Of a DNA stretch of 64,000 bases, positions 5,359 through 63,317 are shown in pieces. This DNA comes from Candidatus Saccharimonadota bacterium (GTDB lineage: Bacteria > Patescibacteriota > Saccharimonadia > Saccharimonadales > JAXHMH01), in the NCBI GenBank assembly GCA_034521515.1, contig JAXHMH010000002.1, positions 344,379-408,378 on the forward strand. Direction: 5' to 3'. A program made the position numbers and the translations under genes. The notes below the pieces were generated by a model. That model saw nothing but the letters and a program-made list of their open reading frames with translations. It had not been told where the DNA came from and did not search any database. Position 1 is the first letter of the stretch. Every line of letters begins with the position of its first letter.

Positions 5359-5373
5359 AAGGAGAAGGAAAGA

Positions 5374-6198: not shown

Positions 6199-6212
6199 CA
6201 TAAGTATTTACT

Positions 6213-6240
6213 CAGCACTCTGTACTGTGTACTCTGTACT
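6213..6240. repeat. Heptad tandem tract (cagcact ctgtact gtgtact ctgtact)
   Basis: Four consecutive 7-nt units lie directly between the TA cassette and the ATG (6245) of the PrgI-like gene. Confidence 0.75.
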
Positions 6241-6244
6241 TACA

Positions 6245-7368: not shown

Positions 7369-7403
7369 TGAAGTACTTAGTACATAGTCCTCAGTACCAA
7401 GTA
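7369..7403. repeat. Heptad tandem tract (gtac-type: gaagtac ttagtac atagtcc tcagtac caagtaa)
   Basis: Five 7-nt units lie between the PrgI-like stop and the 3' end of the four-helix-bundle gene. Confidence 0.65.
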
Positions 7404-7418
7404 AAAGCCACTCAACTT

Positions 7419-7769: not shown

Positions 7770-7801
7770 TAATTCATTCTACCATCATTTAGTTACTAAC
7801 A

Positions 7802-7836
7802 TGTACTAGGTACTAGGTACTGTGTACTCCGTACTT
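7802..7836. repeat. Heptad tandem tract (tgtacta ggtacta ggtactg tgtactc cgtactt)
   Basis: Five phase-locked 7-nt units lie upstream of the four-helix-bundle gene. The CTAG-containing units give stops on both strands. Confidence 0.8.
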
Positions 7837-16785: not shown

Positions 16786-17158
16786 GCTTAGTCTCCCGTC
16801 GCTTGTCGCTTGTCGCTAGCTTACCAATAAACCCTGTCAGTAATTTTGAGATCTCTATTGAGATACCTGTGAATTGTTTGTACTCATTTTGATGAATTTT
16901 ATTTGCTGCTAGCGCAATATGAAGCATGGAGCGGACTTCCGCACATGAGCCACGTGCAATTACTAAAAACTGCCTAAGCTCCTTGTCCGAACTCCTGTCA
17001 AACCCTTCGGCAATATTGTTAGTGATAGATAAGCAAGCTCTCATAATCTGATCCTTAAACGATAGATCTCTCTCATACTTCAACTCCTTACTAAGCCCTA
17101 TGTATAGCTCTTCGCCTTTTTGCCAGGCAATCACATCCTCAAAATTCCTTATACGCAT
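16778..17158 (-). CDS. Four-helix-bundle protein (23S rRNA intervening-sequence protein family) inserted between dnaN and recF
   Basis: Shows VIAWQKGEELY, NNIAEGFDRSS and ARGSCAEVRSML. The C-terminal 10 aa (ATSDKRRETKRD) are encoded by a heptad tract, and the stop overlaps the recF GTG (GTGATTGA). Confidence 0.8.
   Translation of the reverse strand: MRIRNFEDVIAWQKGEELYIGLSKELKYERDLSFKDQIMRACLSITNNIAEGFDRSSDKELRQFLVIARGSCAEVRSMLHIALAANKIHQNEYKQFTGISIEISKLLTGFIGKLATSDKRRETKRD
16797..16817. repeat. Heptad tandem tract (cgtcgct tgtcgct tgtcgct) inside the 3' end of the four-helix-bundle ORF
   Basis: Three 7-nt units, stop-free on the minus strand, are translated as a C-terminal extension. Confidence 0.7.
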
Positions 17159-18302: not shown

Positions 18303-18580
18303 TTTAGACTCCTTATTACTGATTTATATAAATAGTTTTAGTTATAGTAAGGCCTGTGTAAACCGTGTAAAACTCATATTTTACAGTGGTGTAAATACGT
18401 AAAAACCGTAGGAAAACCCTGCGTATAGATTGGGTATAAAATGTGCGCAAGTCGGGTGTTTTGTACCAGGATAACTAACCTACAAGCGCCTGTGAACAAC
18501 TGCACCAAACTACCCACAGGTTGTACAAGTATTTGTGCACAACTTACCCCCAGGTTTTCTGTACGCGAACTATAAGACTG

Positions 18581-18664
18581 CAACCTACTAACTACCAATT
18601 CCTTCACCCCATCTACCATATACCAACTACTAACTACCAACTGCCATCTACCAACTACCAGCCT
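18581..18664. repeat. Heptad tandem tract, 12 units (ccaacta/ccatcta/ctaacta type) abutting the dnaA stop
   Basis: The tract is 84 nt in unbroken 7-nt register. On the minus (dnaA sense) strand the units read tagttgg/tagatgg, giving TAG in all frames. It is the same unit family as 54585-54605. Confidence 0.8.
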
Positions 18665-20030
18665 ACGCATAAAGGCGCTCCTTTATCTGAGTTATAGCTG
18701 TCTTAATATTAGAATCGTAGTTGGCTTCTTTTTCAATCTTCTCCACGGAATGAATGGCGGTTGTGTGGTCTTTCCGGCCAAGTTCTCGGGCAATTTTAGG
18801 GAAACTCAAATGCAACTCGCTTCTTAACATATACATAGCAACCTGTCTTGGCACGACGATATCTTTATCTCGTTTTGGCCCCAGTATGTCGTCCATAGGT
18901 AATTGGAAATGTTTAGCAGTACGCTCAATGATCTGTTTTGCACTCAAATGTTTTGGGCGAGATTTATTGCCGCCGAGAACCGCATTGGCAATATGTAAAT
19001 CTGGTTCTAAACTGCGCATTTCACAGAATGCCAGCAATTGGTTTAAGGCGCCTTCCAGCTCCCTAATGTTGGTCTGAAAATTGTTCGCTAAAAATTCTAC
19101 GACGGGAGCAGGCAATTCAACCCCATGCGTGTCCGCCTTAGTTTGAATGATCGCGCAACGAGTTTCAAAATCCGGCGTTTGCATATCAATGCTCATACCC
19201 CACGCAAATCGTGAACGGAGTCGCTCTTCCAGGGTAGGTATGTCTTTTGGCGGCTTGTCAGAGCTAATAATAATCTGTTTGTTAGCTTGATGGAGCGCGT
19301 TAAAAGTGTGAAAGAACTCTTCCTGAGTCTTTTCTTTGCCAGCTATAAACTGCACATCGTCGATGATAAGCACATCTGCGCCGCGGTAATAACCGGCAAA
19401 ATCAGTGTTCTTCTTATATCTAATGGCGTCTAGAAATTCCTGCACGAACTGTTCTGTTGAAACATACACCACGTGAGCGTTAGGGTTGTTGGCTCGCACT
19501 TCGTTGCCGACAGCTTGGATTAAATGCGTTTTGCCAATACCAACGCCACCATATAAAAACAACGGGTTATACTTTGACCCTGGTTTTTGAGCAATCGCCT
19601 GACAGGCGGCATACGCCAACTCGTTTGCCGAACCGACAATAAAATTTTCAAACGTATAGCGATCATTTAAACCTTGGCGGTAAGTGTGCGTGAGAGTTGA
19701 TTTGGTGGCTTGTTTTGATTGAGGTTTCTCGGCTCGATTCTTTAGAAGCACCGGTTCATCATAAGTGGGTTTTTTAGAAGGCGTTATGCTGGAATGGATT
19801 TTATACTCGATCTGCGACGGTGAAACACCGTTCTTTTTCAAAGTATCCGTTACCAGTTGATTATATTTCTGTTCAAGTTGTTGTTTGATAAATACATTTG
19901 GTACGCCAACTATAAATAAATCTTTCTCTTGGCGAAGGAGTCGGGTGTTCTTAAACCAGGTAACAAAACTCGCACGTGATACAGACAGCTCTATTTCGCC
20001 GAGTACAGCTTGCCATAGGCGATCTTGCAT
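18663..20030 (-). CDS. dnaA: Chromosomal replication initiator DnaA
   Basis: Walker A is GGVGIGKTHL and Walker B is LIIDDVQF. Sensor motifs are present, and the C-terminal DNA-binding helix is DHTTAIHSVEKI. Confidence 0.95.
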   Translation of the reverse strand: MQDRLWQAVLGEIELSVSRASFVTWFKNTRLLRQEKDLFIVGVPNVFIKQQLEQKYNQLVTDTLKKNGVSPSQIEYKIHSSITPSKKPTYDEPVLLKNRAEKPQSKQATKSTLTHTYRQGLNDRYTFENFIVGSANELAYAACQAIAQKPGSKYNPLFLYGGVGIGKTHLIQAVGNEVRANNPNAHVVYVSTEQFVQEFLDAIRYKKNTDFAGYYRGADVLIIDDVQFIAGKEKTQEEFFHTFNALHQANKQIIISSDKPPKDIPTLEERLRSRFAWGMSIDMQTPDFETRCAIIQTKADTHGVELPAPVVEFLANNFQTNIRELEGALNQLLAFCEMRSLEPDLHIANAVLGGNKSRPKHLSAKQIIERTAKHFQLPMDDILGPKRDKDIVVPRQVAMYMLRSELHLSFPKIARELGRKDHTTAIHSVEKIEKEANYDSNIKTAITQIKERLYA

Positions 20031-20962: not shown

Positions 20963-21919
20963 ATGTTTGAAAATCTTATTGTACTGCCCATATTTAACTT
21001 GCTCGTTTTTATCTATGCAATTTTGCCAGGGCATAACTTTGGGCTCGCACTGATTATATTCACGGTTGTTGTGCGCATGCTGATGTGGCCGCTCATTAGA
21101 AAACAGCTTCATCACGCTAAAGCAATGCGTAAACTTCAACCAGAGATTAAGAAAATTAAACAGGCTACCAAGGGCGATCGACAAAAAGAGTCCATGATGC
21201 TCATGCAGCTGTACAAGGAACGTGAAGTTAGTCCGTTTAGTAGTCTCGGTGTTCTGGCAGTCCAGCTGGTTATATTCATAGGGCTCTACCAGGGTTTGAT
21301 CCGAGTTATTGAGGATCCGCAGGCGCTAATTGTGCACTCCTATAGCTGGATTGCAAACCTAGGGTGGATGCAACAACTGGCTGCCGATATCGGGCAATTT
21401 GACGCCACGCTTTTTGGACTGGTTGATTTGTCGCGGAGTGCTCTAGGATCCGGCGGTCTGTATATCCCAGCTCTACTACTAGTAATCGGTAGTGCCGCCA
21501 CACAGTATTATCAGAGCAAGCAACTCATGCCCGATGATAAAAATTCACGCGGTTTGCGGCAGATTATGCGTGAAGCCAGTGCTACTGGTAAACAAGCCGA
21601 CCAATCCGAAGTACAGGCTGCTACCGGGCGTATGATGCGCTACTTTATACCCGTTATGATATTCGTTGTTACTATTGGGCTGGCTTCAGCACTGGCGCTT
21701 TATTGGTTCACTAGCGGTATAGTTGCCTATCTCCAGCAATCTCGTATCTTAGGCCAGGATAAGGATGAGCTGGAAGAGCTAGCCCATAAAGACGACAAGA
21801 AGAACGATAAACAAAACGCCAAGAAACAAGTCATAGAAGGCGAAGTTATCCAAAAACCAAAAACCAAAAACCAAAAGACCAAAAAGACCTCCAAATCTAA
21901 AAAAAGGAGGAAACGATGA
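20963..21919 (+). CDS. yidC: Membrane protein insertase YidC (short, Gram-positive type) with lysine-rich tail
   Basis: Shows GLALIIFTVVVRMLMWPLIRKQLHHAKAMRKLQPEIKKIKQ and multiple TM helices. The basic C-terminal tail is KPKTKNQKTKKTSKSKKRRKR. It follows rnpA. Confidence 0.88.
   Translation: MFENLIVLPIFNLLVFIYAILPGHNFGLALIIFTVVVRMLMWPLIRKQLHHAKAMRKLQPEIKKIKQATKGDRQKESMMLMQLYKEREVSPFSSLGVLAVQLVIFIGLYQGLIRVIEDPQALIVHSYSWIANLGWMQQLAADIGQFDATLFGLVDLSRSALGSGGLYIPALLLVIGSAATQYYQSKQLMPDDKNSRGLRQIMREASATGKQADQSEVQAATGRMMRYFIPVMIFVVTIGLASALALYWFTSGIVAYLQQSRILGQDKDELEELAHKDDKKNDKQNAKKQVIEGEVIQKPKTKNQKTKKTSKSKKRRKR
21850..21884. repeat. Heptad tandem tract inside the yidC tail-coding region ((ccaaaaa)x3, ccaaaag, accaaaa)
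   Basis: Three perfect and two imperfect 7-nt units encode QKPKTKNQKTK. Confidence 0.75.
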
Positions 21920-30479: not shown

Positions 30480-30488
30480 AGTAATTAC

Positions 30489-30517: not shown

Positions 30518-30533
30518 CCTTTTGTTTGTGGAA

Positions 30534-31071: not shown

Positions 31072-31078
31072 ATCTAAA

Positions 31079-31205: not shown

Positions 31206-32705
31206 ATGGTACGAAAAAGTACAGTTCGGGAGCACCGCAGCCAACAACGCAGTAATGACCAAAAAGGGCTACGGCATGTCGAGCTTGGCTCGGCAACAGG
31301 TAGCCAGGCGCAAAGTGTCTGGAAACACATACCACTCTGGGGGAGCTACGCGCTGCTGGTGTACATGCCGTTTCATATCTTTTTGAGCCAGTGGTTGAGC
31401 ACATTTACCGGCGGTCTGGAAGCCTGGAAAATTGCCAAAGATGTAATAACGCTTGCCCTGGTAGTGGTTAGTCTGGGCTTAGTTTTATGGACCGGCGCGT
31501 ACAAACAACGAGTATTTATATGGGCTGCCGGGTTGTCGGTGGCGTACGTTGCACTGCATATTATTACCTACGCCATAAACCAGGACACCACACCGGAAGT
31601 TGCGGCGTTGGCCACGGTTTATAACAATCGCCTCCTGTGGTATTTGATAATCGGCCTGAGTGCTTGGTTGCTGACGCCAAAAAGTTTCACTATCAATAAA
31701 ATCACCAAGCTGGTGCTGATCGTCAGCACCATAACCGCCGGGTTAGGAGTGTTGCAGTATTTTGCGCCCGCTAACATCATGACGTATTTTGGCTACAGCT
31801 TGGATCGCGGCGTTTGGCCGGCATTCTTTATTGATAGCAAACCGGACTTGCCGCGGATTATGAGCACCGTGCGCGACCCCAACTCCTACGGGGCGTACTT
31901 AATCCTACCTCTTACTCTCCTCTGGACGCTGCTTTTGCAGAGTTTAAAAGTAAAAAGTAAAAAGTACAAAGCTCAAGTCTCAAAGCTCAAGTCTCCAGTC
32001 TCATCTATTAACTATCATCTATCAACTATGAGCAGCGCCACGCTGCTCCTCAGTGGCCTCTTCATGCTGCACGGTCTCGCGTTGTTTTTGACTTTTTCAC
32101 GGTCGGCTTGGATCGGGGCATTTGTCAGCTTGGTCATCGTCAGTTTAGTGGCAGAACGCCGGTTTATGAAACAGTGGTTTAAGCGGTTGTGGCCGTTTGT
32201 GACAGCGGCGATATTCGTGCTGGCGTTTGGAATACTCATGCTAAGGGATACCTACGTGGTGCAAAACATTATCTTTCATGCCGATGACAGCACAACTGCC
32301 GAAATGGACTCCAACGCACTGCATATTCATGCGCCACTAGAGGGGTTACGGCAGGCCGGCCAAAAACCACAAGGCTACGGTCCGGGCACTGCGGGTATTG
32401 TCTCGATCCAGAATGAGTCCGGCAGCTTTTTGACAGAAAACTACTACATACAGATATTGCACGAGGTCGGCATTGCCGGACTGGCGGTCTTTGGGGCGGC
32501 GCTGTTGTTTGTAGTGCGGCAACTACGGGTTGAGAGCAAACTTGGCGCAGCTTTGTTTGCATCGTTTTGGGGCTACTTCTTGATGAGCATGATTATGCAT
32601 TTATGGACCAATGAAGCAGTTGCTGCGCAGTGGTGGCTGGCGGCTGGCTTGCTGATCGGGGCGCAGATGGCAGCCAATGAGCACAAGCCAAAGCGACAGA
32701 ACTGA
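31206..32705 (+). CDS. O-antigen ligase/polymerase-like (Wzy_C-type) polytopic membrane protein
   Basis: At least 10 hydrophobic helices. LALFLTFSRSAWIGAFVSLVIV is typical of the O-antigen ligase family loop region. GAGGAG SD 7 nt before the ATG. Confidence 0.6.
   Translation: MVRKSTVREHRSQQRSNDQKGLRHVELGSATGSQAQSVWKHIPLWGSYALLVYMPFHIFLSQWLSTFTGGLEAWKIAKDVITLALVVVSLGLVLWTGAYKQRVFIWAAGLSVAYVALHIITYAINQDTTPEVAALATVYNNRLLWYLIIGLSAWLLTPKSFTINKITKLVLIVSTITAGLGVLQYFAPANIMTYFGYSLDRGVWPAFFIDSKPDLPRIMSTVRDPNSYGAYLILPLTLLWTLLLQSLKVKSKKYKAQVSKLKSPVSSINYHLSTMSSATLLLSGLFMLHGLALFLTFSRSAWIGAFVSLVIVSLVAERRFMKQWFKRLWPFVTAAIFVLAFGILMLRDTYVVQNIIFHADDSTTAEMDSNALHIHAPLEGLRQAGQKPQGYGPGTAGIVSIQNESGSFLTENYYIQILHEVGIAGLAVFGAALLFVVRQLRVESKLGAALFASFWGYFLMSMIMHLWTNEAVAAQWWLAAGLLIGAQMAANEHKPKRQN
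31950..32033. repeat. Heptad tract (12 units = 84 nt = 28 codons) embedded in-frame in the ligase-like CDS, inverted relative to the intergenic tracts
   Basis: The units read gtaaaaa gtaaaaa gtacaaa gctcaag tctcaaa gctcaag tctccag tctcatc tattaac tatcatc tatcaac tatgagc. The reverse complement contains gatgata, gttaata, ctggaga and cttgaga, units also found at 55383-55501 and 56054-56186. It encodes VKSKKYKAQVSKLKSPVSSINYHLSTMS. Confidence 0.8.
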
Positions 32706-48662: not shown

Positions 48663-48883
48663 TCCGGTAAACCCTTAATTAAAATACTCAGTCAGACTAT
48701 AGTCTACACTAATGACTTGCCTAATAGTAACCTGTAACGGGCTTTATAATCATTAAGGTGCCACTGTAATTCAAGTAGCGCATTTCTTTTGTAGCAAGTC
48801 TGTTCTAGTATAATAGAGATGAGCGATTTGTCTGTATAATGTCTATCGTAGTCTGATATTGCAAATAAGAGGAGCTTTTTTTA

Positions 48884-50660: not shown

Positions 50661-50663
50661 CGG

Positions 50664-51632
50664 CTATTTAAAACGACTAATTTTTGTAAGTGATGTGTTG
50701 AGGAGTGCAGGAGCGAAATATCCAGATAAAGCACTTACTAGCAAGAAAGTTAAAAGACGGTTAAGAATTGCAACAGTTAGAGTTATTGGTACGGGCACTT
50801 GCATTAATGTGGCGCCTAGTGCCATAAGACTTTCTTTCACGCCTATGCCAGCGGGCGTAATTGAAAATATCATAGTCCAGCTTGATAAGGCGGCGATAAA
50901 CAGCGACTGAGCTATACCTATTTCAAATCCCAGGACTCTATAAAGGAGGAATAGGTTAACACCAGTGGTAACTAGAGTGATTAAAGCCCAGAAAGCTGAG
51001 CGATAAATAAATTTGGGGTGTTTCCTTACTTTGTCGTACTCTTCTGCTGCCGCATGAAGTCTCTCCAGCACCTTATAGGAGTGTTTATTGTGTAGTCGTA
51101 TAAGGCCACCAATAAGCTTTGATAACGGCGCGTAGAGTGTTGTTAAGAACAAAGATACAGCAATAATTATCAACAACATCGGCAAAGAGTAAGCGCCCGG
51201 CTGGCTATGTAGCGATGTGAATATTAAAATTGCCAGCAGACCTGACATGACGAACTGTAAAATGTTACTTAATACTAGACTGGACGAGAACTTAGCATAA
51301 GAGACCCCGTAACTCTTTTTTAAATAGAAGGCGCGTACAGTTAGCCCGATATAGCCAGGCGTTACCTGCTTGCTGAATCTTGTTAATGCTGATAAGCCAA
51401 AAATTTCTTTTTTGCTTAGCTTAACTCCGTGTGGCTCAATCGCCAGCTCGATTAGGTAGCCCATAGTGTAGATATTTAGTGCAATAAATAGTATTACAGG
51501 CAGCAATAGCCATGGATTTGTTAGAGAAATTTGCTGGAAATTATCCCAGTTAGTGTTTATGTACCAAAAGAAAACCGCTAACAATACGGATACAGTGGTG
51601 ATGCTTAATATGCGTTTATATTTTTTACTCAT
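50664..51632 (-). CDS. UPF0104/LPG-synthase-TM-type (flippase-like) membrane protein
   Basis: 322 aa with ~8 hydrophobic helices. It is paired with an upstream GT2 polyprenyl-phosphate glycosyltransferase gene, a recurrent arrangement for this family. Confidence 0.4.
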   Translation of the reverse strand: MSKKYKRILSITTVSVLLAVFFWYINTNWDNFQQISLTNPWLLLPVILFIALNIYTMGYLIELAIEPHGVKLSKKEIFGLSALTRFSKQVTPGYIGLTVRAFYLKKSYGVSYAKFSSSLVLSNILQFVMSGLLAILIFTSLHSQPGAYSLPMLLIIIAVSLFLTTLYAPLSKLIGGLIRLHNKHSYKVLERLHAAAEEYDKVRKHPKFIYRSAFWALITLVTTGVNLFLLYRVLGFEIGIAQSLFIAALSSWTMIFSITPAGIGVKESLMALGATLMQVPVPITLTVAILNRLLTFLLVSALSGYFAPALLNTSLTKISRFK

Positions 51633-51649
51633 TGCGTGAATGGATTTGT

Positions 51650-52591
51650 CTAATCATCTATCTGGATAGTTTTTAATCGTTCCAAAGTATCTTCGAGCAG
51701 CGTTCGGTTGGTTTTAATAAGGTCTGCAATTACGGCGAGTGCGTAGGCTAGTACCGAAACAAATATCAGTACAGCGCCAAGCAGCAACGACTGAATGTGC
51801 TCGCCCCTATCACCACCGGCGTAGAGCACCAAATAGCGCGCAAAAGGAATAATACCAAGCACTAGGAAGAAAGTGCCAAGCGAAATAAACAGCAAATGAG
51901 GGCGGTACATAATATAGCTGCGCACAATGGCACTGCCGGACTTAAACATATGCTGCCAGATGTTTTTGAATAACCTAGATTCACGAGTCTTGGGGTTGGT
52001 CTTAATCTTAATGCTGGTTATTGGTATGCGCTTGTTGCCAGCCTGGATAATGGTCTCCATGCAGTAACTAAACTCAGTCACGATGTTTAGACGCATTAAA
52101 GATTCTTTTGAGTAAGCACGGAAGCCGCTAGCTGCATCTGGCAAGTTGGTGCGCGCAGCTTTGTTAACTACGGCGCTACCAATGCGCTGCATCAGCTTTT
52201 TAAACCCGGAAAAGTGCTCTATTTTACTAGTTTGGCGGTCGCCAATAACAATCTCTGACTCGCCATTAATTATCGGCTGCACTAGATCACCAATAACCTC
52301 TTGCGGGTACTGGTTGTCGCCATCGGTGTTAACAACTATATCTGCGCCGTGGGCGAGGGCGTAGTTTACGCCATCGTGAAACGAGCGAGCCAAACCCATG
52401 TTTTTGCTGTGCAGTACAAAGTGCTTTACGCCGTGACGTTTGGCAACCTCGACAGTTTTATCAGTACTGCCATCATCAATAATTAACACTTCTACGCTAT
52501 CAACGCCCTTGATTTTTTTGGGGATGGTTTTGAGGACCAATGGCAAGGTCTGTTCCTCATTAAGGCAAGGTATCTGAATGTAAACTTTCAC
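51650..52591 (-). CDS. GT2 glycosyltransferase, polyprenyl-phosphate sugar synthase (GtrB/DPM1-like)
   Basis: VKVYIQIPCLNEEQTLP, LIIDDGSTDKT and NTDGDNQY (DxD), with two C-terminal TM helices. GTG 52591 with GGAG 7 nt upstream is preferred over the track start at 52663. Confidence 0.75.
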   Translation of the reverse strand: MKVYIQIPCLNEEQTLPLVLKTIPKKIKGVDSVEVLIIDDGSTDKTVEVAKRHGVKHFVLHSKNMGLARSFHDGVNYALAHGADIVVNTDGDNQYPQEVIGDLVQPIINGESEIVIGDRQTSKIEHFSGFKKLMQRIGSAVVNKAARTNLPDAASGFRAYSKESLMRLNIVTEFSYCMETIIQAGNKRIPITSIKIKTNPKTRESRLFKNIWQHMFKSGSAIVRSYIMYRPHLLFISLGTFFLVLGIIPFARYLVLYAGGDRGEHIQSLLLGAVLIFVSVLAYALAVIADLIKTNRTLLEDTLERLKTIQIDD

Positions 52592-52678
52592 CGTTTTTCT
52601 CCGTTTTGCTTCCAGTGTATTGTACCAGAGAAGTATTACCCGTAATATAGGTATGTTGATCAAAAAGAAAGGGAGTTG

Positions 52679-54406
52679 ATGTCCGGACAGCTAAACACGC
52701 CGCATGGCGGCAAACTTATAGACCTTATTGCAGGTGATAAAAAGGCAGCAGAATTAAAGAACAAAGCCCAAGATTATAAAAGCTGGGATCTAACACCGCG
52801 TCAGATTTGCGACACAGAGATGATTATTAACGGCGCATTCTCTCCGTTAACCGGTTTTATGAACCAGGCAGATTACGAGAGTGTTTGTAGTGACATGCGT
52901 CTCAGTGACAGTACGCTGTGGCCGATACCGATAACACTGGATGTTAGCGAAGAGTTTGGCAAAAGCCTCAAAAAGGGTGAAAAGGTCGCGCTGCGCGATC
53001 AAGAAGGCGTTATCTTGGCGATACTAGAGGTTGGTGACGTGTGGCAGCCTGATAAAGCCAAAGAGGCCGAGCAAGTGTATGGGGCTAATGATACAGCGCA
53101 TCCAGCCGTACATCACATGCACAATGAAGCACACGATATGTATGTAGGCGGTACGCTGACAGGTCTAGAGCTACCGAGTTATTATGATTTTAAAGAGCTA
53201 CGCAACTCGCCAAAAGAGCTACGGACATATTTTGAAAAAATGGGCTGGACCAAAGTGGTGGCTTTTCAGACGCGTAACCCGATGCACCGTGCTCATGTTG
53301 AGTTAACGCTGCGGGCTGCCAAACAGACCGAGGCCAACCTATTGATTCATCCAGTTGTCGGTATGACAAAGCCGGGTGATATAGATCATTACACCCGAGT
53401 GCGTATTTATAAGAAGCTCCAAGAACGCTATCCGGCGTCAACCGCCATGATTTCTCTACTGCCGCTGGCAATGCGCATGGGTGGCCCGCGCGAGGCAGTT
53501 TGGCACGCTATAATCCGCAAAAATTACGGTGTAACCCACTTTATCGTTGGCCGTGACCACGCCGGACCGGGCAAGAACTCTAAAGGCGAGGACTTTTACG
53601 GTCCGTACGACGCGCAAAAACTTGTCGAGGAATATAAGGACGAACTCGGCATAGAGATTGTGCCGTTCCAGATGATGGTGTATGTACCGAGCAAAGATAT
53701 GTACATGGCTATTGATGAAGTGCCGGAAGGTACGGAGTTTGCCAGTATCTCTGGCACAGAACAGCGTGAGCGGCTGGCTACTGGCCGGGAGTTGCCTGAA
53801 TGGTTCACCTATCCGGAGGTTGAGCAAGAATTACGGCGAACCACCAAGCCGCTGCATCAGCGAGGTTTTACAGTGTTTTTCACAGGGCTTTCTGGTTCTG
53901 GCAAGTCAACCGTAGCAAACGCCTTGCGTATTAAACTGCTAGAACAGGGTGATAAAACCGTGTCGTTACTAGACGGGGATGTGGTGCGCAAGCACTTGTC
54001 ATCTGAACTTGGATTTAGCAAAGAGCATCGGGATCTAAATGTGCTAAGAATTGGATATGTGGCTTCTGAGATTGCCAAACACGGCGGCGTAGCTATATGT
54101 GCCCCGATTGCACCATATGACAAAACCAGAAAACAGGTGCGCCAGATGGTAGAAGAAACCAATGCCAAGTTCATTTTGGTGCATGTTGCGACCTCGCTGG
54201 AAGTGTGCGAGGAGCGTGACCGCAAAGGACTCTACGCTGCGGCGCGTGCCGGGAAAATCAAGGAGTTCACCGGGATATCAGACCCGTACGAAGAACCGAC
54301 CGACGCGGATTTGGTGCTAGATACGGTAGATACAACACCGGAAGCTTTGGCGCAAGAAGTGCTATTGCATCTGGAAAAAGAAGGTCTGTTGCACGACGAA
54401 GCATAA
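52679..54406 (+). CDS. sat: Bifunctional sulfate adenylyltransferase (ATP sulfurylase) / adenylylsulfate (APS) kinase
   Basis: The ATP-sulfurylase part has QTRNPMHRAHVEL and VGRDHAGPG. The C-terminal APS kinase has FFTGLSGSGKSTVANAL (P-loop) and LDGDVVRKHL. Confidence 0.9.
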   Translation: MSGQLNTPHGGKLIDLIAGDKKAAELKNKAQDYKSWDLTPRQICDTEMIINGAFSPLTGFMNQADYESVCSDMRLSDSTLWPIPITLDVSEEFGKSLKKGEKVALRDQEGVILAILEVGDVWQPDKAKEAEQVYGANDTAHPAVHHMHNEAHDMYVGGTLTGLELPSYYDFKELRNSPKELRTYFEKMGWTKVVAFQTRNPMHRAHVELTLRAAKQTEANLLIHPVVGMTKPGDIDHYTRVRIYKKLQERYPASTAMISLLPLAMRMGGPREAVWHAIIRKNYGVTHFIVGRDHAGPGKNSKGEDFYGPYDAQKLVEEYKDELGIEIVPFQMMVYVPSKDMYMAIDEVPEGTEFASISGTEQRERLATGRELPEWFTYPEVEQELRRTTKPLHQRGFTVFFTGLSGSGKSTVANALRIKLLEQGDKTVSLLDGDVVRKHLSSELGFSKEHRDLNVLRIGYVASEIAKHGGVAICAPIAPYDKTRKQVRQMVEETNAKFILVHVATSLEVCEERDRKGLYAAARAGKIKEFTGISDPYEEPTDADLVLDTVDTTPEALAQEVLLHLEKEGLLHDEA

Positions 54407-54410
54407 TGAT

Positions 54411-54724
54411 TAATAGGAAATAGGAAATAGGAAATAGGAAATAGGAAATAGGAAATAGGAAATAGGAGTTGGGAGGGGTGAGACTAGAGACTAGAGACTA
54501 GAGAATTGATAGTTAATAGATGATAATTAATAGGTGATAGATAATAGGTGAGAATTGATAGTTGATAGGTGATGGAAGGTGGAAGATGGTAGTTGGTAGG
54601 TGGTAGGCGGGGTGGTGAGACTTGAGACTAGAGACGTGAGGGGTGATAGATAATAGGTGAGAATTAATAGATGATAGGGGGTGGAAGTTGTCAGTGGGCT
54701 GTGGTCTGTTGTCAGTTGTCTGTC
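54411..54724. repeat. Heptad tract of ~45 phase-locked 7-nt units in several sequence blocks
   Basis: The blocks are: (aaatagg)x8 perfect at 54411-54466; gagacta x3 plus one degenerate unit at 54480-54507; gatagtt/aataggt-type units; gatggta/ggtggta-type units; acttgag/actagag/acgtgag; and gtcagtg/gtctgtt/gtcagtt/gtctgtc. The tract was parsed by hand with no register loss. Confidence 0.9.
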
Positions 54725-54774
54725 CACAACCTGTTCACTGACGACTGATTACGGGCTACTAGCGAATGCTACAA

Positions 54775-54813
54775 TTGACATAAATCCTTCCGTTATATAT
54801 ACTTTGGTATATG
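54775..54813 (+). promoter_or_regulatory. Promoter of the DinJ/YafQ-like operon, leaderless configuration
   Basis: TTGACA (54775-54780), 17 nt, TATACT (54798-54803), then ATG at 54811, 7 nt after the -10. There is no SD. Confidence 0.6.
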
Positions 54814-55101
54814 AAAACCGATGATAGTAAGAACACCATCTTAAACATTAAGTTAAGCAAATCGCTAAAGCTAGAGGCTCAAAGTATTGCCAAAGAAATG
54901 GGCATACCGCTAACTACTGTCGTTAAGGCCGGCCTTAACGACTTTGTTAGAAGTAGATCGGTCACTTTATCTACATCTCCTAAACTTAAGCCAGAAGTTG
55001 AGCGTAAACTAGTTGAAGCGGCGCAAGAAGCCAGACAAGGAAAGAATATATCTGACAAGTTCACTACACTAGAAGAAGGATTCGACTGGCTGGATGCATG
55101 A
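54811..55101 (+). CDS. Type II antitoxin, RelB/DinJ-like
   Basis: 96 aa. ILNIKLSKSLKLEAQSIAKEMGIPLTTVVKAGLNDFV is RHH/DinJ-like. There is a 4-nt overlap with the toxin gene. Confidence 0.65.
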   Translation: MKTDDSKNTILNIKLSKSLKLEAQSIAKEMGIPLTTVVKAGLNDFVRSRSVTLSTSPKLKPEVERKLVEAAQEARQGKNISDKFTTLEEGFDWLDA

Positions 55102-55364
55102 TCGAAGATATTCGTTATTCCAAAAAGTTCAAGAAACAGTACAAAAAGTTACCATTTAAAATCCAACAACGGACAAAAGAGCGCATTAGGTTGCTTTATG
55201 AAGATCCGTTTAATCCTATTTTGAAGCACCACATACTATCAGGTAATCTCAGGGGCGTACATAGTATAAATATAACCGCCGATTACAGAGCGCTTTACAT
55301 AGAAATAAACAATAAGAAAATAATGTTCGATATGATAGGGGCTCACTCACAATTGTATAAATAG
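55098..55364 (+). CDS. Type II toxin, RelE/YafQ family
   Basis: IRYSKKFKKQYKKL...LKHHILSGNLRGVHSINITADYRALYIEINNKKIMFDMIGAHSQLY. It is a paralog of 30534..30794. Confidence 0.75.
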   Translation: MIEDIRYSKKFKKQYKKLPFKIQQRTKERIRLLYEDPFNPILKHHILSGNLRGVHSINITADYRALYIEINNKKIMFDMIGAHSQLYK

Positions 55365-55382
55365 AATATAGTATTTCGTATC

Positions 55383-55501
55383 TAGGAGGTAGTAGATGGG
55401 GGCGGTGAGACTAGAGACGTGAGACTAGAGACTAGAGACTTGAGACTTGAGACTAGAGAGGTGAGGGGTGATAGATGATAGTTAATAGATGATAGTTAAT
55501 A
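55383..55501. repeat. Heptad tract of ~17 units (ggtgaga ctagaga cgtgaga ... gatgata gttaata)
   Basis: A gagac-type block is followed by a gata/taata-type block, forming the spacer between two TA cassettes. Confidence 0.85.
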
Positions 55502-55518
55502 TTCTACTTCCGTATATT

Positions 55519-55556
55519 TTGACAGCATGCCGTCATGACGGTAAAATGGCATCATG
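55519..55556 (+). promoter_or_regulatory. Promoter/operator of the RHH/RelE operon, leaderless configuration
   Basis: TTGACA (55519-55524), 17 nt, TAAAAT (55542-55547), then ATG at 55554, 6 nt after the -10. A 12-bp palindrome CCGTCATGACGG (55530-55541) lies in the spacer. Confidence 0.6.
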
Positions 55557-55784
55557 ACTAAAAAAACTACTCTTTATCTGGATCCGAGCCTGTATAAAGG
55601 CATAAAGTTACGCGCCGTGGAAACTGGCCAATCGGTTTCTGCCCTAATGAACGAAGCTCTGCGTGATCAGCTGAGTGAAGATTTGTCGGATATCACCAGC
55701 ATCAGAAACCGCCTTGCCAAAAAAGACAAGCCTTTGACCTATGACCAAGCGCTGAGTGAGCTTAAGAGAGATGGCCTCATATAA
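55554..55784 (+). CDS. Type II antitoxin, ribbon-helix-helix (CopG-like)
   Basis: MTKKTTLYLDPSLYKGIKLRAVETGQSVSALMNEALRDQL shows the RHH pattern. Confidence 0.7.
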   Translation: MTKKTTLYLDPSLYKGIKLRAVETGQSVSALMNEALRDQLSEDLSDITSIRNRLAKKDKPLTYDQALSELKRDGLI

Positions 55785-56031
55785 CGTTCTGATCCTGCCA
55801 GTTGTTATCAAAAAGGATTTGCCTAAAATTCCTAAGAACGACGTTCGCAAAATCATGAGCCGTATTGAATCACTTGGCGAAAACCCCCGACCAGATTGGT
55901 CTAAAAAGCTGTCTGGCAGAGAGGAATACCGAGCTAGGTCAGGCAACTACCGGATACTGTATGTCATTGATGACGGCATAAAGATTGTGCAAGTAACTAA
56001 AGTCAGAGATCGCAAGAAAGTATATAAATGA
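55771..56031 (+). CDS. Type II toxin, RelE/ParE family
   Basis: YRARSGNYRILYVIDDGIKIVQVTKVRDRKKVY. ATG 55771 overlaps the antitoxin 3' end; the track start at 55756 is less likely. Confidence 0.7.
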   Translation: MASYNVLILPVVIKKDLPKIPKNDVRKIMSRIESLGENPRPDWSKKLSGREEYRARSGNYRILYVIDDGIKIVQVTKVRDRKKVYK

Positions 56032-56053
56032 ATAGCACCTATTAACTAAAATT

Positions 56054-56186
56054 GTAGACGCATGAGACATGAGACTGGAGACTAGAGACATGAGACGTGA
56101 GACTAGAGACTAGAGGGGTAATAGATGATAGGTAATAGGTAATAGGTAATAGATAATAGATGATAGGTAATAGGTAATAGATGATG
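56054..56186. repeat. Heptad tract of ~19 units (catgaga ctggaga ctagaga ... ggtaata gatgata)
   Basis: A gagac-type block is followed by ggtaata/gataata/gatgata units. The cysQ ATG codons (56181-56189) lie in the last units. Confidence 0.85.
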
Positions 56187-56951
56187 ATGGATAAATTACT
56201 AGAGCAAGTTATAGGGATCGCGCAGCAAGCCGGGGACGCCATTATGGAGGTTTATCACTCTGATGAGCACGGTGTAGAAACAAAAGAAGATGATTCACCG
56301 CTCACCATTGCCGATAAAGCGGCCAACGACATCATTGTGCGGGAGCTAGAAAAAATATCTAAACTCCCGATTATTTCTGAAGAAAACGAGCAACGCGAAG
56401 GTGCAGACACCTTCTGGTTAGTAGATCCGTTGGATGGTACCAAGGAATTCATTAAGAAAAACGGCGAATTTACCGTTAATATCGGGCTTATTCATAATAA
56501 AAAGCCGATACTTGGCGTGGTATACGCACCGGACAAAGGTGTGACTTACGTTGGCTCCGAGGCTGGTGCTTTCAAATATGAGGCCGGTCAAGAAACCAAA
56601 ATTACCGCGCACCATGATGAGGCGATGCCAACAATCGTCGCTAGCCGTTCGCACCGTGACGAACGAGTCGATGCGCTACTTGAGAATATTGGCGAGCACA
56701 AGATTGTGAGTATGGGATCATCCTTCAAACTATGCCTCGTAGCGGACGGTACAGCCATGCTATATCCGCGCTTAGCTCCGACCTACCTATGGGATACGGC
56801 TGCAGCCGATGCAGTTGTACGGGCGGCAGGCGGGAGAGTGCAAAACCTGGCTGGCGAGGATTTGACGTATGACCCAGCAAAAGATATGAAAAACCCATTT
56901 TTTGTGGTTAGTACTAAAAACTGTATTGATTGGCAAAGATACTTAGGCTAA
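56181..56951 (+). CDS. cysQ: 3'(2'),5'-bisphosphate nucleotidase CysQ (PAP phosphatase)
   Basis: Inositol-monophosphatase-family motifs ISEE and WLVDPLDGTKEF, with C-terminal WDTAAADAVV. 256 aa. Confidence 0.8.
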   Translation: MMMDKLLEQVIGIAQQAGDAIMEVYHSDEHGVETKEDDSPLTIADKAANDIIVRELEKISKLPIISEENEQREGADTFWLVDPLDGTKEFIKKNGEFTVNIGLIHNKKPILGVVYAPDKGVTYVGSEAGAFKYEAGQETKITAHHDEAMPTIVASRSHRDERVDALLENIGEHKIVSMGSSFKLCLVADGTAMLYPRLAPTYLWDTAAADAVVRAAGGRVQNLAGEDLTYDPAKDMKNPFFVVSTKNCIDWQRYLG

Positions 56952-58708
56952 AAGCTTAGCCCAAAACCAAAGCTCAACAACACGGTCAAACTAATGGTAG
57001 TGATGATATTGAGCCAGATACCCAGACGCATAAAATCGCTGAATTTATAGGCTCCGGCACTGTAGACCATGGTGTTGGTTTGATAACCGAGCGGACTTAT
57101 GAATGAAAGTGAGGCAGCAATAGCAATGGCAATGGCGAACATACGCGGGTCAGCCGAACTCTGCACAGCCGTAGCTATGGCGATAGGGAACACTAACAAC
57201 GCAGCAGCCGCATTAGTAATAAGCTCGGTCAAAATTGAGGTGGCAATAATAACACCGAGCAATAGACCAATTGTGCCAAACACACCCATGTAATCAATAA
57301 TTGTTTGGCTGAGTGCAGTAGCCAGCCCCGAGGCATCAACACCTTTGGCTACACCGATGGCGGCGGCAATCATAACCAGCAGATCAAAATCTATGGCGTT
57401 GCGCGCCTGGGTGGTGCTATTGAGTCGCAGTAGGATAGTAGATAAAGCACCACTGAGCACGGCGATGGATAGCGGCACGCCAAGAGCAATCAGGCCGATA
57501 ATTAGCCCGACGGTGACGGTTATTAGGAAGCTACCTTTGTCGTTGCTGGTTTTTGTTTTGCTGACATAGCGCATGTATAAGAAATCGCTGCGATCTTGCC
57601 AACGAGGAATAAACGCTTCGTCACTGACGATAAGCAAGCTATCGCCAGGGCGAAGGGCTACGTTGCCCAGCGATCCGCTGATCTTTTCACCGGCACGGAA
57701 AATAGCCAACACAGCTGCTTGGTACTTGGAGCGGAAGCCAATTTCTGCCAGCGTACTGCCAACCAGTGATTTGTTGTGGCCAACCACTACTTCTATGTAG
57801 CTAGTTTTATGCGCCAGTCGACTGGCGTGTTTATCTTCAACTGCTTTTAAGCTTGTATGATGAGCCAGTTCAATTAGTGAGTCTGCGTTGCCGGAAAATC
57901 GAAGTACATCACCGGGCTGAATAGTCGTGGCGGGGTTTACCGGAGCGAGCACATCGCCGTTTTGCCGAATAAGCTCCACCAAAAACACGTCTTTTAGGTT
58001 GCGCAGACCAGCCTGGTTGATGCTCTTGCCGATCACGGTTTTTTTAGGCAGCATGTCTATGGTAAAGCGTTTTTCTATGTCTGCTGCATCAATATCTGCC
58101 AGTGTCCGCTCCGGAATGAGTCGGGGCGCAAACAGCACGATAAAACCAATGCCAATGATTGCGAGTGGCAGGCTGTAGGCGGTGAGTTCAAAAAATGAAA
58201 AACCCTCGAACCCGTAATCTGTCAGTAAACCAGATACGACCAGGTTGGTGGAGGTGCCAATTAGTGTCAATGCTCCGCCAAATATGGCTGCGTACGATAG
58301 CGGGATTAAAAACTTAGATGATGGCAGGTGGTTCTTTTTAGACCAGGTGATAATGGGGTTAATCAGCATAGCCACCACAGGCGTATTATTAACAAACGCC
58401 GAGCTGATGCTTACTGGAGCCATGATTCTAATTAACCCGCGCCGGATGCTTTTTGAGGCACCAAATAATTTAGCAGTTATTTTATCTACCTGGACGGTGT
58501 TTTCTATGGCACGGGCAATCACAAACAGCGAAGCAATGGTGATAAGGCTCTGGTTGCTAAAGCCAACAAAAGCCTCGTTAATAGATACAATGTCGGTTAT
58601 AACCAAAGCAGCCAAGCCGATCAAGAATGCGACTGATGGCGCGACCAAACCCCTTAAAAGGCTAATAAATATCCCCGCAAGTACAAGCAAGGTTATGAGT
58701 TCTTGCAT
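56948..58708 (-). CDS. SLC13/DASS-family anion permease with two central TrkA-C (RCK_C) domains; probable sulfate transporter by context
   Basis: 586 aa with N- and C-terminal polytopic halves. The central soluble region has two repeats of the GxxLxExxFR-type pattern (GSTLAEIGFRSKYQAAVLAIFR, GKSINQAGLRNLKDVFLVELIR). It has a 4-nt overlap with cysQ, convergent. Confidence 0.6.
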   Translation of the reverse strand: MQELITLLVLAGIFISLLRGLVAPSVAFLIGLAALVITDIVSINEAFVGFSNQSLITIASLFVIARAIENTVQVDKITAKLFGASKSIRRGLIRIMAPVSISSAFVNNTPVVAMLINPIITWSKKNHLPSSKFLIPLSYAAIFGGALTLIGTSTNLVVSGLLTDYGFEGFSFFELTAYSLPLAIIGIGFIVLFAPRLIPERTLADIDAADIEKRFTIDMLPKKTVIGKSINQAGLRNLKDVFLVELIRQNGDVLAPVNPATTIQPGDVLRFSGNADSLIELAHHTSLKAVEDKHASRLAHKTSYIEVVVGHNKSLVGSTLAEIGFRSKYQAAVLAIFRAGEKISGSLGNVALRPGDSLLIVSDEAFIPRWQDRSDFLYMRYVSKTKTSNDKGSFLITVTVGLIIGLIALGVPLSIAVLSGALSTILLRLNSTTQARNAIDFDLLVMIAAAIGVAKGVDASGLATALSQTIIDYMGVFGTIGLLLGVIIATSILTELITNAAAALLVFPIAIATAVQSSADPRMFAIAIAIAASLSFISPLGYQTNTMVYSAGAYKFSDFMRLGIWLNIITTISLTVLLSFGFGLSF

Positions 58709-63182: not shown

Positions 63183-63201
63183 GTTTAGCCAGACATTCAT
63201 T

Positions 63202-63250
63202 GAATAGTTGATAGATAATAATTGCTATTTGAGACAGGAAGTTGTTACAA
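63202..63250. repeat. Short heptad tract (gaatagt tgataga taataat tgctatt tgagaca ggaagtt gttacaa)
   Basis: About seven degenerate 7-nt units of the same families (gata, gagac, ggaagtt) lie immediately upstream of the VapBC promoter. Confidence 0.5.
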
Positions 63251-63278
63251 AGAACGTCCTTGTACAGTGGGGTTTAGA

Positions 63279-63317
63279 TTGACAAAATGCAGGCATGCAT
63301 GCTATCATGCCTGCATG
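63279..63317 (+). promoter_or_regulatory. Promoter/operator of the VapBC operon, leaderless configuration
   Basis: TTGACA (63279-63284), 18 nt, TATCAT (63303-63308), then ATG at 63315, 6 nt after the -10. A 10-bp inverted repeat, TGCAGGCATG (63288-63297) and CATGCCTGCA (63306-63315), spans the spacer, the -10 and the start. Confidence 0.6.

Follow-up and report, generated by a model that had tools for sequence, protein, structure and literature searches.

How do spacers filled largely with 7-nt repeat units arise in a reduced bacterial genome, and why do they surround small accessory genes? The question is raised by the interval between the sat/cysC and cysQ genes (positions 54,411 to 56,186) in a 64,000-nt stretch of contig JAXHMH010000002.1 (GenBank assembly GCA_034521515.1) of a Candidatus Saccharimonadota bacterium; this whole stretch is hereafter called the window, and all window-level counts refer to its 64 kb only. 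The interval contains three tracts of degenerate heptads that bracket two toxin-antitoxin (TA) operons, as recognized in a preliminary description made from the letters alone. The explanation that we favor, at a probability of about 0.6, is that these arrays originate by 7-nt slippage together with point mutation, are copied between loci and are kept only where they are harmless.

Period-7 tracts between sat/cysC and cysQ

The features of the interval are the following.

52676..54406, + strand: sat/cysC fusion (ATP sulfurylase and adenosine 5'-phosphosulfate (APS) kinase; Pfam PUA_2, ATP-sulfurylase, APS_kinase)
54411..54724, + strand: tract 1, a 314-nt heptad array
54412-54467, + strand: tract 1 sub-block (AATAGGA)x8
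54468-54570, + strand: tract 1 composite module A
54571-54605, + strand: tract 1 GRTGGWA block
54606-54680, + strand: tract 1 phase-shifted module B
54690-54724, + strand: tract 1 GTCWGTN block
54775..54803, + strand: promoter of TA operon 1, TTGACA-17-TATACT, with the -10 hexamer ending 7 nt before the ATG
54811..55364, + strand: TA cassette 1 (TA1), antitoxin 54811-55101 (no Pfam match) and YafQ/RelE-type toxin 55098-55364
55398..55501, + strand: tract 2, a single composite module (G-rich leader, (GAGACNN)x8, GAGGGGT, (RATAGNT)x4)
55479-55509 (left arm, the end of tract 2) and 56018..56048 (right arm): 31-nt inverted repeat, 74% complementary
55519..55547, + strand: promoter of TA operon 2, TTGACA-17-TAAAAT, 6 nt before the ATG
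55554..56031, + strand: TA cassette 2 (TA2), ribbon-helix-helix (RHH) antitoxin 55554-55784 and ParE/RelE-type toxin 55771-56031
56054..56186, + strand: tract 3, a single composite module ((GAGACNN)x7, GAGGGGT, (RATAGNT)x9)
56181..56951, + strand: cysQ-type 3'-phosphoadenosine phosphatase, Inositol_P family

Periodicity was assessed by lag self-match, Tandem Repeats Finder (TRF) and first-order Markov simulations (n=50), with a strict self-match threshold of 0.70. The lag-7 self-match is 0.71 for tract 1, 0.71 for tract 2 and 0.75 for tract 3, compared with 0.12-0.40 at lags other than multiples of 7. At the strict threshold, the window contains 10 lag-7 segments totaling 822 nt, with none at lags 2-6, 8, 10 and 11 and none in the 50 simulated sequences; with a looser threshold, the count at lag 7 rises to 14 segments (1110 nt) versus 1-6 segments at other lags. 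The period-7 signal of the window is thus far above chance and the tracts are real. The perfect blocks that had been picked out by eye are recovered by TRF as (AATAGGA)x8.0 in tract 1 (54412-54467) and (GAGACTA)x3.6, both with a 100% match. The program also reports a perfect 14-mer in 2.2 copies and higher-order periods of 14, 21 and 28 nt (89-92% match for the period-21 and period-28 copies), at which tracts 2 and 3 match at 89-100%, versus 83-85% at period 7.

The tracts share a composite module that runs from a G-rich leader through (GAGACNN)n and GAGGGGT to (RATAGNT)n and is present in four copies within 1.8 kb (54468-54570, 54606-54680, 55395-55501 and 56054-56186), with a GAGAC-to-ATAG phase offset of +1 in all four. 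The phase itself changes within tract 1, from 6 to 3 for the GAGAC units and from 2 to 0 to 4 for the ATAG units, through register slips of +4 at about 54606-54616 and +3 at about 54680-54689, so that the original reading of this tract as a parse with no loss of register does not hold; the out-of-phase segment is 84 nt long (12x7) and, for this reason, a blind 7-nt parse re-synchronizes. Two further statements had to be given up. The spacers are not built entirely of heptads, given that tracts 1, 2 and 3 occupy about 78%, 55% and 85% of them, respectively, the remainder being promoter DNA, and the unit consensus G-N4-T-(A/T), which most units were said to fit, accommodates in its best phase 14 of 44, 8 of 16 and 9 of 19 units.

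Neighboring units are related to each other. Adjacent units differ on average at 1.5-2.6 positions, compared with 3.4 for random pairs of units and 4.8 for composition-matched random 7-mers, and intermediates connect successive blocks, as in the series GAGACTA>GAGAATT>GATAGTT and GAGACGT>GAGGGGT>GATAGAT. The unit vocabulary is limited, with a common GA.A core.

The TAA stop codon of sat/cysC lies 5 nt upstream of tract 1, and tract 3 extends into the ATGATGATG start of cysQ. In the closest relative compared (L088, with a Sat/CysC protein 84% identical to that encoded in the window), cysQ starts 42 bp past sat/cysC. Hence the 1.77 kb that comprise the tracts and the two TA operons are an insertion in the present lineage. 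The gene identities proposed initially are borne out, namely Sat/CysC, YafQ/RelE- and ParE-type toxins with their antitoxins, and an Inositol_P (CysQ-type) phosphatase; so are the consensus promoters, with a promoter scan finding an 11/12 match to the sigma-70 promoter at both TA operons. Because the -10 hexamers end 6-7 nt before the ATG, leaderless mRNAs are predicted for both operons. The 31-nt inverted-repeat pair encloses TA cassette 2, and no intrinsic terminator was found after sat/cysC, TA1 or TA2.

Near the end of the window, a FitA/PIN TA operon has a near-consensus sigma-70 promoter (63278-63315), read by eye, and is likewise predicted to yield a leaderless mRNA; across the three TA operons (54775-54811, 55519-55554, 63278-63315), the gap between the -10 hexamer and the ATG is 6-8 nt. 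The neighborhood of the interval (47424-58708) encodes a set of sulfation genes, namely sat/cysC, cysQ, an SLC13-type permease, two to three sulfotransferases and a polysaccharide pyruvyl transferase, with the SLC13/CitMHS permease encoded on the opposite strand. The location of this gene set inside a glycan-synthesis region points to a sulfated surface polysaccharide. In species-representative genomes, the nearest matches to Sat/CysC come from outside Saccharibacteria, at no more than 68% identity, and those loci served as controls. Sat/CysC and DnaA of the window each match, at 100% identity, a protein that NCBI attributes to a Candidatus Saccharibacteria metagenome-assembled genome.

Related arrays elsewhere in the window

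The cysC-cysQ interval is not the only place in which the vocabulary occurs. The window contains at least 10 period-7 loci, 8 of them intergenic, with 13-24-mers in common and with the unit families GAGACNN, RATAGNT, GGTAGNT and GTACTNN recurring across loci. The additional arrays are the following.

6206..6241, + strand: GTACTNN tract, the final element of an 872-bp Phd/PIN TA insertion
7372..7407, + strand: left GTACNNN tract, flanking the inserted gene IVP1 of the 23S_rRNA_IVP (four-helix-bundle) family
7787..7836, + strand: right GTACNNN tract, flanking the same IVP1 gene, 7419-7769(-)
16790..16819, - strand: (GCGACAA)x3 mini-array at the 3' end of a second IVP gene (16778-17158), directly before the recF start
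18576..18667, - strand: dnaA tract (GGTAGTT family), directly past the dnaA stop and upstream of the oriC-like dnaA-dnaN spacer
21842..21891, + strand: (CCAAAAA)n inside the lysine-rich 3' end of yidC
31945..32028, - strand: Wzy tract, 84 nt, 12 units, 28 codons, inside a Wzy_C-family open reading frame (ORF), 31206-32705
63201..63242, + strand: short stretch of the same vocabulary between the cupin stop and the FitA/PIN TA promoter

The most informative of these arrays is the Wzy tract. It is in frame on the stop-free strand, with a 499-aa ORF left open across it, and when the protein is aligned with nine homologues, it stands out by a clean insertion of 26-27 residues. Read antisense, units 1-6 of this array are CATAGTT GATAGAT GATAGTT AATAGAT GAGACTG GAGACTT and units 7-12 are GAGCTTT GAGACTT GAGCTTT GTACTTT TTACTTT TTACTTT. 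Exact 22-24-mers are common to distant tracts; the longest string shared between tracts, the 24-mer TGATAGATGATAGTTAATAGATGA, is found in both the Wzy tract and tract 2, 23 kb apart. The stretch at 63201-63242 consists of AATAGTT GATAGAT AATAATT GCTATTT GAGACAG GAAGTTG.

Several side observations pertain to these arrays. The array in the Wzy_C gene (O-antigen-ligase family) includes (AAAAGTA)x3. The (CCAAAAA)n of yidC, also present in the Logan contig L081, encodes a Lys/Thr/Pro-rich tail and is a second case of 7-nt periodicity within an ORF. Next to the dnaA tract, the oriC-like spacer contains an indel cluster (18459-18472, net 2 nt) between the metagenome-assembled genome and the Logan contig, and the adjoining heptad tract is identical in the two.

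Low-complexity sequences invite the suspicion that the arrays were produced during the assembly of reads. In the independent Logan assembly of SRR26473340, however, tracts 2 and 3 and the dnaA tract have the same length and agree base for base, apart from a G/A difference at 55477, so for these tracts the artefact concern is allayed; tract 1 lies outside the Logan contigs, which are short and end at 54973 and 51820, and this leaves the suspicion some room for tract 1. The open Wzy frame and the modest length of the longest string shared between tracts also speak against an artefact, which we consider extremely improbable.

Distribution among relatives and in other phyla

The arrays are recent and lineage-specific, as comparison of the loci shows. 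Heptad arrays make up about 1-2% of the window DNA and are few or missing in most close relatives: the loose-threshold density is 17.3 nt/kb in the window versus 1.97 nt/kb in 132 kb from eight related Saccharibacteria loci, and the strict-threshold density is 9.4 nt/kb in the window versus 0.58 nt/kb in loci from other phyla (1.39 Mb). Five of the loci (L082, L088, L089, L090 and L282, with L089 and L090 coming from one relative) contain no lag-7 segment even at the loose threshold, and L083 contains a single weak, degenerate one. The dnaA tract is missing from the relatives L082 and L083; at the same post-dnaA spot, L083 has a terminator-like hairpin. In L280 and L281, in which DnaA is 81% identical to that of the window, (ATTAGGA)x5 lies directly past the dnaA stop, that is, in the same position as in the window, with a different unit. 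In L280, this array occupies 11366-11419, and a GAAATAG-like tract lies upstream of dnaA at 9669-9709, an arrangement also seen in L281. Thus, presence, length and sequence of the arrays all differ between related genomes, as expected of rapid turnover.

Heptamer arrays are common beyond this lineage. The patterns (GAGACNN)x4 and (RATAGNT)x4 occur in 71 and 114 IMG/VR contigs, respectively, and these 185 public viral loci contain 534 period-7 arrays of at least 42 nt, the longest spanning 301 nt; 86 of the 534 (16%) consist of two or more blocks of at least three units each in a single register. Two high-GC IMG/VR contigs (L121 and L123) carry arrays in nearly every spacer, 12-13 per about 12 kb, each with a small vocabulary and often as inverted pairs that would form hairpins. 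The GAGAC-then-RATAG module pattern itself yielded no matches in viral contigs and three in JGI metagenomes, all three in high-GC, unrelated sequences with (GAGACCT)n followed by (GATAGCT)n (L277 113-184, L278 8478-8549, L276 1-63). Their likeness to the module may be due to chance, given the search pattern, or to a mutational link between GAGAC and GATAG. With no viral match and only three unrelated ones, the module is not a recognizable dispersed mobile element in those collections. Among the acidobacterial controls, arrays of the heptamers CAGTTCT/AGAACTG, often in inverted pairs, lie directly 3' of sat/cysC (L012 11737-11764; L036 11735-11830 and 12612-12693; L066 14451-14605), so that heptad arrays following sat/cysC recur in unrelated phyla.

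Association with accessory genes

The preliminary description proposed a cassette formula (tract, promoter, two genes). On a curated gene list, with accessory genes defined as TA or IVP genes, tracts are present at 6 of the 15 junctions adjoining such genes versus 2 of the 42 others (Fisher test, p=0.003); when only spacers of at least 40 nt are counted, the numbers are 6 of 13 and 1 of 19 (p=0.01). This association is only suggestive, for the sample is small, one junction is not independent of the next, and inserted DNA makes the longest spacers. Some tracts have no cassette, namely the one after the dnaA stop and those within the Wzy-family ORF and the yidC 3' end, and some cassettes have no tracts, as is the case for the MazEF and YafQ-type TA modules at 29917-31074. 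The latter are an insertion as well, judging from the 19-bp gap between the GT4 and Wzy genes in L282, and the tract-less YafQ-type TA (30534-31074) is paralogous to TA1, the toxins being 44% identical. The enrichment at accessory junctions is supported within the window, but tract and cassette are separable, and the link between tracts and accessory genes is not obligatory.

Three further insertions carry or adjoin arrays. The 872-bp Phd/PIN insertion, whose terminal tract ends 4 nt before the prgI ATG, sits inside a direct duplication: 53 nt from the prgI 5' end (MATYKVISDI...) are present at 5373-5425 and again at 6245-6297. The two copies of this repeat are 92% identical, and the upstream copy has gained a stop codon. 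The unusual size of the duplication suggests that Phd/PIN integrated by recombination rather than by transposition. IVP1 is inserted between prgI and a traC-like gene, which are separated by 52 bp in L082; because GTAC is palindromic, the two IVP1 tracts are at the same time the arms of an imperfect inverted repeat (25 nt at 80% and 14 nt at 93%). The second IVP gene (16778-17158, - strand) is inserted between dnaN and recF, where the gap in L082 is 10 bp. As a side observation, stand-alone IVP genes in the window (7419-7769(-) and 16778-17158(-)) and in L280 (12911-13270) are inserted between conserved neighbors (prgI and the traC-like gene, dnaN and recF) and are flanked by imperfect inverted repeats, the arms being 407 nt apart both at IVP1 and at the L280 gene; this arrangement of inverted repeat plus gene resembles the stem-plus-ORF layout of rRNA intervening sequences.

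These insertions bear on the suggestion, made at the outset, that the arrays are recombination substrates. In this version of events, the arrays would be landing sites, and TA operons and IVP genes would integrate into them or be exchanged between them by recombination that is facilitated by homology or mediated by microhomology, for example, following natural transformation (a process reported in Saccharibacteria, PMC10633639), with the arrays acting as attachment sites without a dedicated integrase. There is some circumstantial support: apart from the enrichment of tracts at accessory junctions, the same unit family in the same orientation is found on both sides of the inserted genes (GTACNNN at IVP1, GAGAC/RATAG modules at TA1 and TA2); tract orientation tracks the host operon and not IVP1, which fits a pre-existing array split by insertion; a stretch of 1.8 kb contains four copies of the composite module; tract 2 forms, at its end, the 31-nt inverted repeat with the 3' flank of TA2; and the Phd/PIN insertion, with its 53-nt target duplication, ends in a tract. 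Against this, there are cassettes that lack tracts (MazEF and the YafQ-type TA between GT4 and Wzy, the latter a paralogue of TA1, and a gene pair at 60.1 kb), tracts that lack cassettes (dnaA, Wzy, yidC), and no recombinase nearby; the proteins scanned across the 64 kb include no reverse transcriptase, recombinase, transposase or integron integrase. Furthermore, spacer length is a confounder, with inserted DNA providing the only roomy spacers, and no relative was found with either the array alone or the cassette alone at the corresponding site. Weighing these points, we regard the landing-site explanation as unlikely. Bracketing of the cassettes could reflect either the sharing of permissive junctions by arrays and cassettes or integration through the arrays, and the present evidence does not separate the two.

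A different connection to mobile DNA was the proposal that the arrays are accreted footprints of transposon insertion and excision, each unit being a 7-bp target-site duplication. Although the unit length is a possible size for such a duplication and the tracts adjoin inserted genes, footprints leave unexplained the eight perfect copies, the 14-, 21- and 28-nt higher-order repeats, the graded transitions between units and the in-frame 84-nt coding array; no transposase and no element ends were found in the window, and the sole clear insertion scar is the 53-nt duplication rather than a 7-bp one. We reject this proposal, with a residual likelihood that is close to nil.

Apart from these genes, the window encodes a 696-aa protein (40376-42466(-)) that matches the putidacin L1 lectin-like bacteriocin family three times and, nearby, a Fic/DOC protein (27510-28649(-)), both of which could be relevant to an epibiotic lifestyle.

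Properties of the transcribed tracts

The sense strands of the tracts contain 4-7% C (4% in tract 1) and 32-37% G, and every intergenic tract in the window has the C-poor strand as the sense strand. For a replication-strand bias as the cause of the G-richness, a single locus is informative: at the dnaA tract, the G-rich strand tracks transcription, not the leading strand. A modest tendency of the same kind towards a G-rich sense strand is seen in other genomes, where arrays between co-directional ORFs have a G-rich sense strand in 62 cases versus a C-rich one in 37 (p=0.015, with crude gene calls).

Stop trinucleotides occur on the sense strand at 3-4 times the background density and are depleted on the antisense strand. 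Tract 1 contains 14-17 stops in each + frame, and the two 66-aa minus-strand ORFs pointed out previously do exist. The transcripts are predicted to be extremely poorly structured: the minimum free energy per nucleotide is -0.062 for the core of tract 1 and -0.068 for tract 3, compared with -0.24 and -0.21 for size-matched background segments, of which 0 of 150 and 1 of 150, respectively, are less stable. A fold of tract 1 with the promoter region is not significantly structured (z-score -0.83), and the inverted-repeat search of the tracts detected no palindromic units, intra-tract inverted repeats or terminal inverted repeats. Rfam yielded no match anywhere in the window at the gathering threshold and the window contains no tRNA or tmRNA genes, so that the tracts do not belong to a known RNA family and are not a tRNA-linked island. 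Tracts 1 and 2 show an about ten-fold excess of Shine-Dalgarno (SD)-like 5-mers, and tract 3 contains none; given this inconsistency across tracts 1-3, SD-like motifs were dropped as a general explanation.

These properties are compatible with a function in RNA. The arrays might serve as C-poor, unstructured spacers with stops in all frames that uncouple the translation of successive cistrons and escape Rho, and as a single-stranded platform for ribosomes, S1 and KH- or cold-shock-type proteins in the SD-independent initiation of cysQ, prgI and recF. The strand orientation of the intergenic tracts, the predicted lack of structure, the enrichment of SD-like 5-mers in tracts 1 and 2 and the apparent lack of intrinsic terminators after sat/cysC, TA1 and TA2 all fit this idea, as does the placement of tract 3, which reaches the cysQ start, of the 6206 tract, near the prgI ATG, and of the 16790 tract, which ends at the recF start. 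There are also precedents, in that translational roles have been proposed for the TAACTGA repeats (PMC4679880) and deletion of heptamer repeats in Nostoc altered reporter output (bioRxiv 10.1101/2022.06.06.494920). However, tract 1 is located past a stop codon and upstream of a promoter for a predicted leaderless mRNA, so that no cistron is left for it to serve; SD-like 5-mers are missing from tract 3; the distances to start codons vary; relatives manage with spacers of 10-52 bp and no arrays; and the units are not conserved between the window genome and L280. The claim that the tracts act as an all-frame translational insulator is correct as arithmetic and does not discriminate, because stops in all frames are expected in any spacer of such length. 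A spacer function in RNA is, in our estimate, an unlikely explanation.

The limited vocabulary with its GA.A core might alternatively reflect cooperative binding of a nucleoid-associated or regulatory protein to 7-bp direct repeats. Operators made of heptameric direct repeats have reportedly been described (PMC5930380; bioRxiv 10.1101/2021.05.14.444153), for example, those of the Streptomyces SARP regulators and of ToxT/H-NS at the TTTTGAT repeats of ctxAB. The known operators, however, comprise 2-4 promoter-adjacent units, compared with 17-45 units here, and the tracts lie at least 50 nt upstream of the -35 element or downstream of genes, place several unrelated unit families side by side and have units that are tolerated within a coding region; moreover, the genes nearby include no candidate for the binding protein. 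Such a protein-binding array is, accordingly, very unlikely.

Origin and persistence of the arrays

The perfect runs, the 14-, 21- and 28-nt copies, the graded transitions, indels that mostly keep the phase and the lineage-specificity of the arrays all fit slippage plus mutation, and the shared 22-24-mers together with the fourfold module call for some copying between loci in addition. We infer slippage as the generator: slipped-strand mispairing would add or remove 7, 14, 21 or 28 nt, and point mutations would create variant units that are then amplified locally, giving rise to blocks with graded transitions. Ectopic recombination or duplication would copy stretches between loci and so yield a genome-wide vocabulary and the four copies of the module.

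Under this slippage-and-copying scheme, selection would be a filter only. In untranslated operon spacers, the survivors would be arrays with a C-poor, stop-rich, unstructured sense strand, possibly because in the opposite orientation, the C-rich unstructured RNA would be a Rho loading site and cause polarity. Inside genes, the survivors would be multiples of 21 nt on the stop-free strand, and the Wzy array is exactly of this kind. As for the causal direction between arrays and cassettes, a compact genome would acquire unconstrained spacer mostly by cassette insertion, so that arrays and cassettes would be expected to accumulate at the same junctions, and the two probably recombine through each other.

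Several observations weigh against this scheme. Local slippage alone fails to explain the fourfold block order with the same +1 offset, and the vocabulary common to loci 23-40 kb apart requires a copying or templating process. That every intergenic tract has the C-poor strand as its sense strand could be due to function, and the L280 array at the identical post-dnaA position hints at a site-specific role or a hotspot. The junction enrichment and the inverted repeats at the tract ends of IVP1 and TA2 fit a recombination role at least as well. Finally, the comparison of lengths rests on two assemblies of the one sample that carries the organism, the lengths being in agreement with one single-nucleotide difference in tract 2, and the analysis is confined to 64 kb of a 706-kb contig.

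In a further scenario, which we consider quite unlikely, a dedicated process in this lineage of the candidate phyla radiation (CPR) would make or use the arrays and also move small accessory genes. Such a process could take the form of integrase-free cassette capture via array attachment or homology sites, or of templated 7-nt synthesis at DNA ends with subsequent insertion of a cassette. If true, it would account for the four module copies, for a vocabulary common to the whole genome and for the position of arrays on both sides of TA and IVP genes, and the present array-rich genome, compared with relatives that lack arrays, could reveal the factor behind heptanucleotide arrays, which have been unexplained since 1990.

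Comparison with known repeat systems

The preliminary description found no described class of repeats with this organization, having considered, among others, CRISPR, REP/BIME and MITE. Those particular comparisons indeed fail. The tracts are contiguous 7-mers with no spacers, unlike CRISPR, and contain no palindromic units or terminal inverted repeats, unlike repetitive extragenic palindromic (REP) sequences, bacterial interspersed mosaic elements (BIME) and miniature inverted-repeat transposable elements (MITE). Integron cassette arrays are similar in layout only, with small accessory genes separated by recurring non-coding elements; the cassettes analyzed here have their own promoters, no integrase or attI was found in the 64 kb examined, and the hairpin of attC sites is missing, judging from the lack of intra-tract inverted repeats and the fold z-score given above.

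Contingency loci based on simple sequence repeats (SSRs), of which neuO and hmw1A are reported heptanucleotide examples, share with the tracts the propensity to slip and a unit that is not a multiple of three. Because tracts 1-3 are outside ORFs and outside the spacers between -35 and -10 elements, the gain or loss of units would not turn a gene on or off, and these tracts are not phase-variation loci. In the Wzy array, a 7-nt slip could, in principle, frameshift a surface-glycan gene; this array is, however, heterogeneous, with at most three identical units in succession.

Tandem heptamers have a long history in cyanobacteria, where the short tandemly repeated repetitive (STRR) sequences were reportedly described by Mazel et al. 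in 1990 in Calothrix and Nostoc. In the strict sense, STRR sequences are repeats of (heterocystous) cyanobacteria with the canonical units CCCCAGT, TTGGTCA and CAACAGT. The STRR and Microcystis arrays resemble those in the window in comprising several heptamers per genome that are often adjacent and intergenic, and differ in their units and phylum; moreover, the genome here is reduced, at about 0.7 Mb, and has a far smaller intergenic fraction. With a Candidatus Saccharibacteria host and different units, the present arrays are not STRR sequences in the strict sense.

The Beggiatoaceae TAACTGA repeats (PMC4679880) come close in placement: they are oriented forward just upstream of start codons, have stop-bearing units with weak or absent Shine-Dalgarno sequences nearby and include occasional reverse copies in ORFs. 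They consist of one dominant unit in 2-6 copies per site, whereas the arrays described here include many families and up to about 45 units and are also found directly past stop codons. The GGGAATC and GGGGA(T/C)T arrays of Xanthomonas and Nostoc (PMC4692102) and the four- and five-heptanucleotide elements of Geobacter (PMC2700814) are dispersed between and within genes, vary in length and sequence between close relatives and occur as inverted pairs, all of which has parallels here. Those arrays are G-quadruplex candidates, in contrast to the present tracts: the canonical motif (at least four G3+ runs with loops of 1-7 nt) was not found in 54300-56300, where only weak G2 patterns were detected.

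Taken as a class, long heptanucleotide SSRs do accommodate the arrays, which are head-to-tail 7-nt repeats longer than expected by chance, dispersed, mostly intergenic and drawn from a limited set of units. In most prokaryotic genomes, no class of long SSRs is reported to be more abundant than that of heptanucleotides, for which polymerase slippage has been proposed as the origin (Mrazek et al. 2007, as cited in PMC4679880 and PMC4692102). Mixed units are also on record: heptamer assemblages in Microcystis, Gramella and Elizabethkingia and spacers with several heptamer repeats in Gramella, Aequorivita and Elizabethkingia (PMC4679880), three different tandem heptanucleotides in Calothrix PCC 7601 (as cited in PMC4692102), heterogeneous (GGGANTN)n arrays with inverted pairs in Xanthomonas (PMC4692102) and 49 four-heptanucleotide elements, between and within genes, in Geobacter metallireducens (PMC2700814). 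Because heptamer and mixed-unit arrays have been described already, and multi-block arrays abound in the viral set analyzed above, the present arrays belong to the known class of heptanucleotide SSRs and are not a new class of repeats. The literature searched contained no paper linking Saccharibacteria or Patescibacteria (CPR) with such repeats.

The discovery is accordingly incremental, given that the repeat class, the mixing of units and the placement at start and stop codons are all on record. Heptanucleotide arrays are among the commonest long simple repeats of bacteria, and neither their generator nor their function has been established. The value of the present case is that it is compact and comes from a reduced genome, with insertions that can be polarized against relatives and one array in frame in a conserved gene. 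It thus provides a comparative system for asking which gene gains and losses track array proliferation and whether arrays promote the capture of accessory genes. Within the class of long heptanucleotide SSRs, the tracts are typical in their tandem 7-nt structure, mostly intergenic location, genome-specific vocabulary, patchy distribution among relatives and, as in some other members, heterogeneity of units, and tract 1, with its 314 nt and at least six blocks, lies at the long end of the range.

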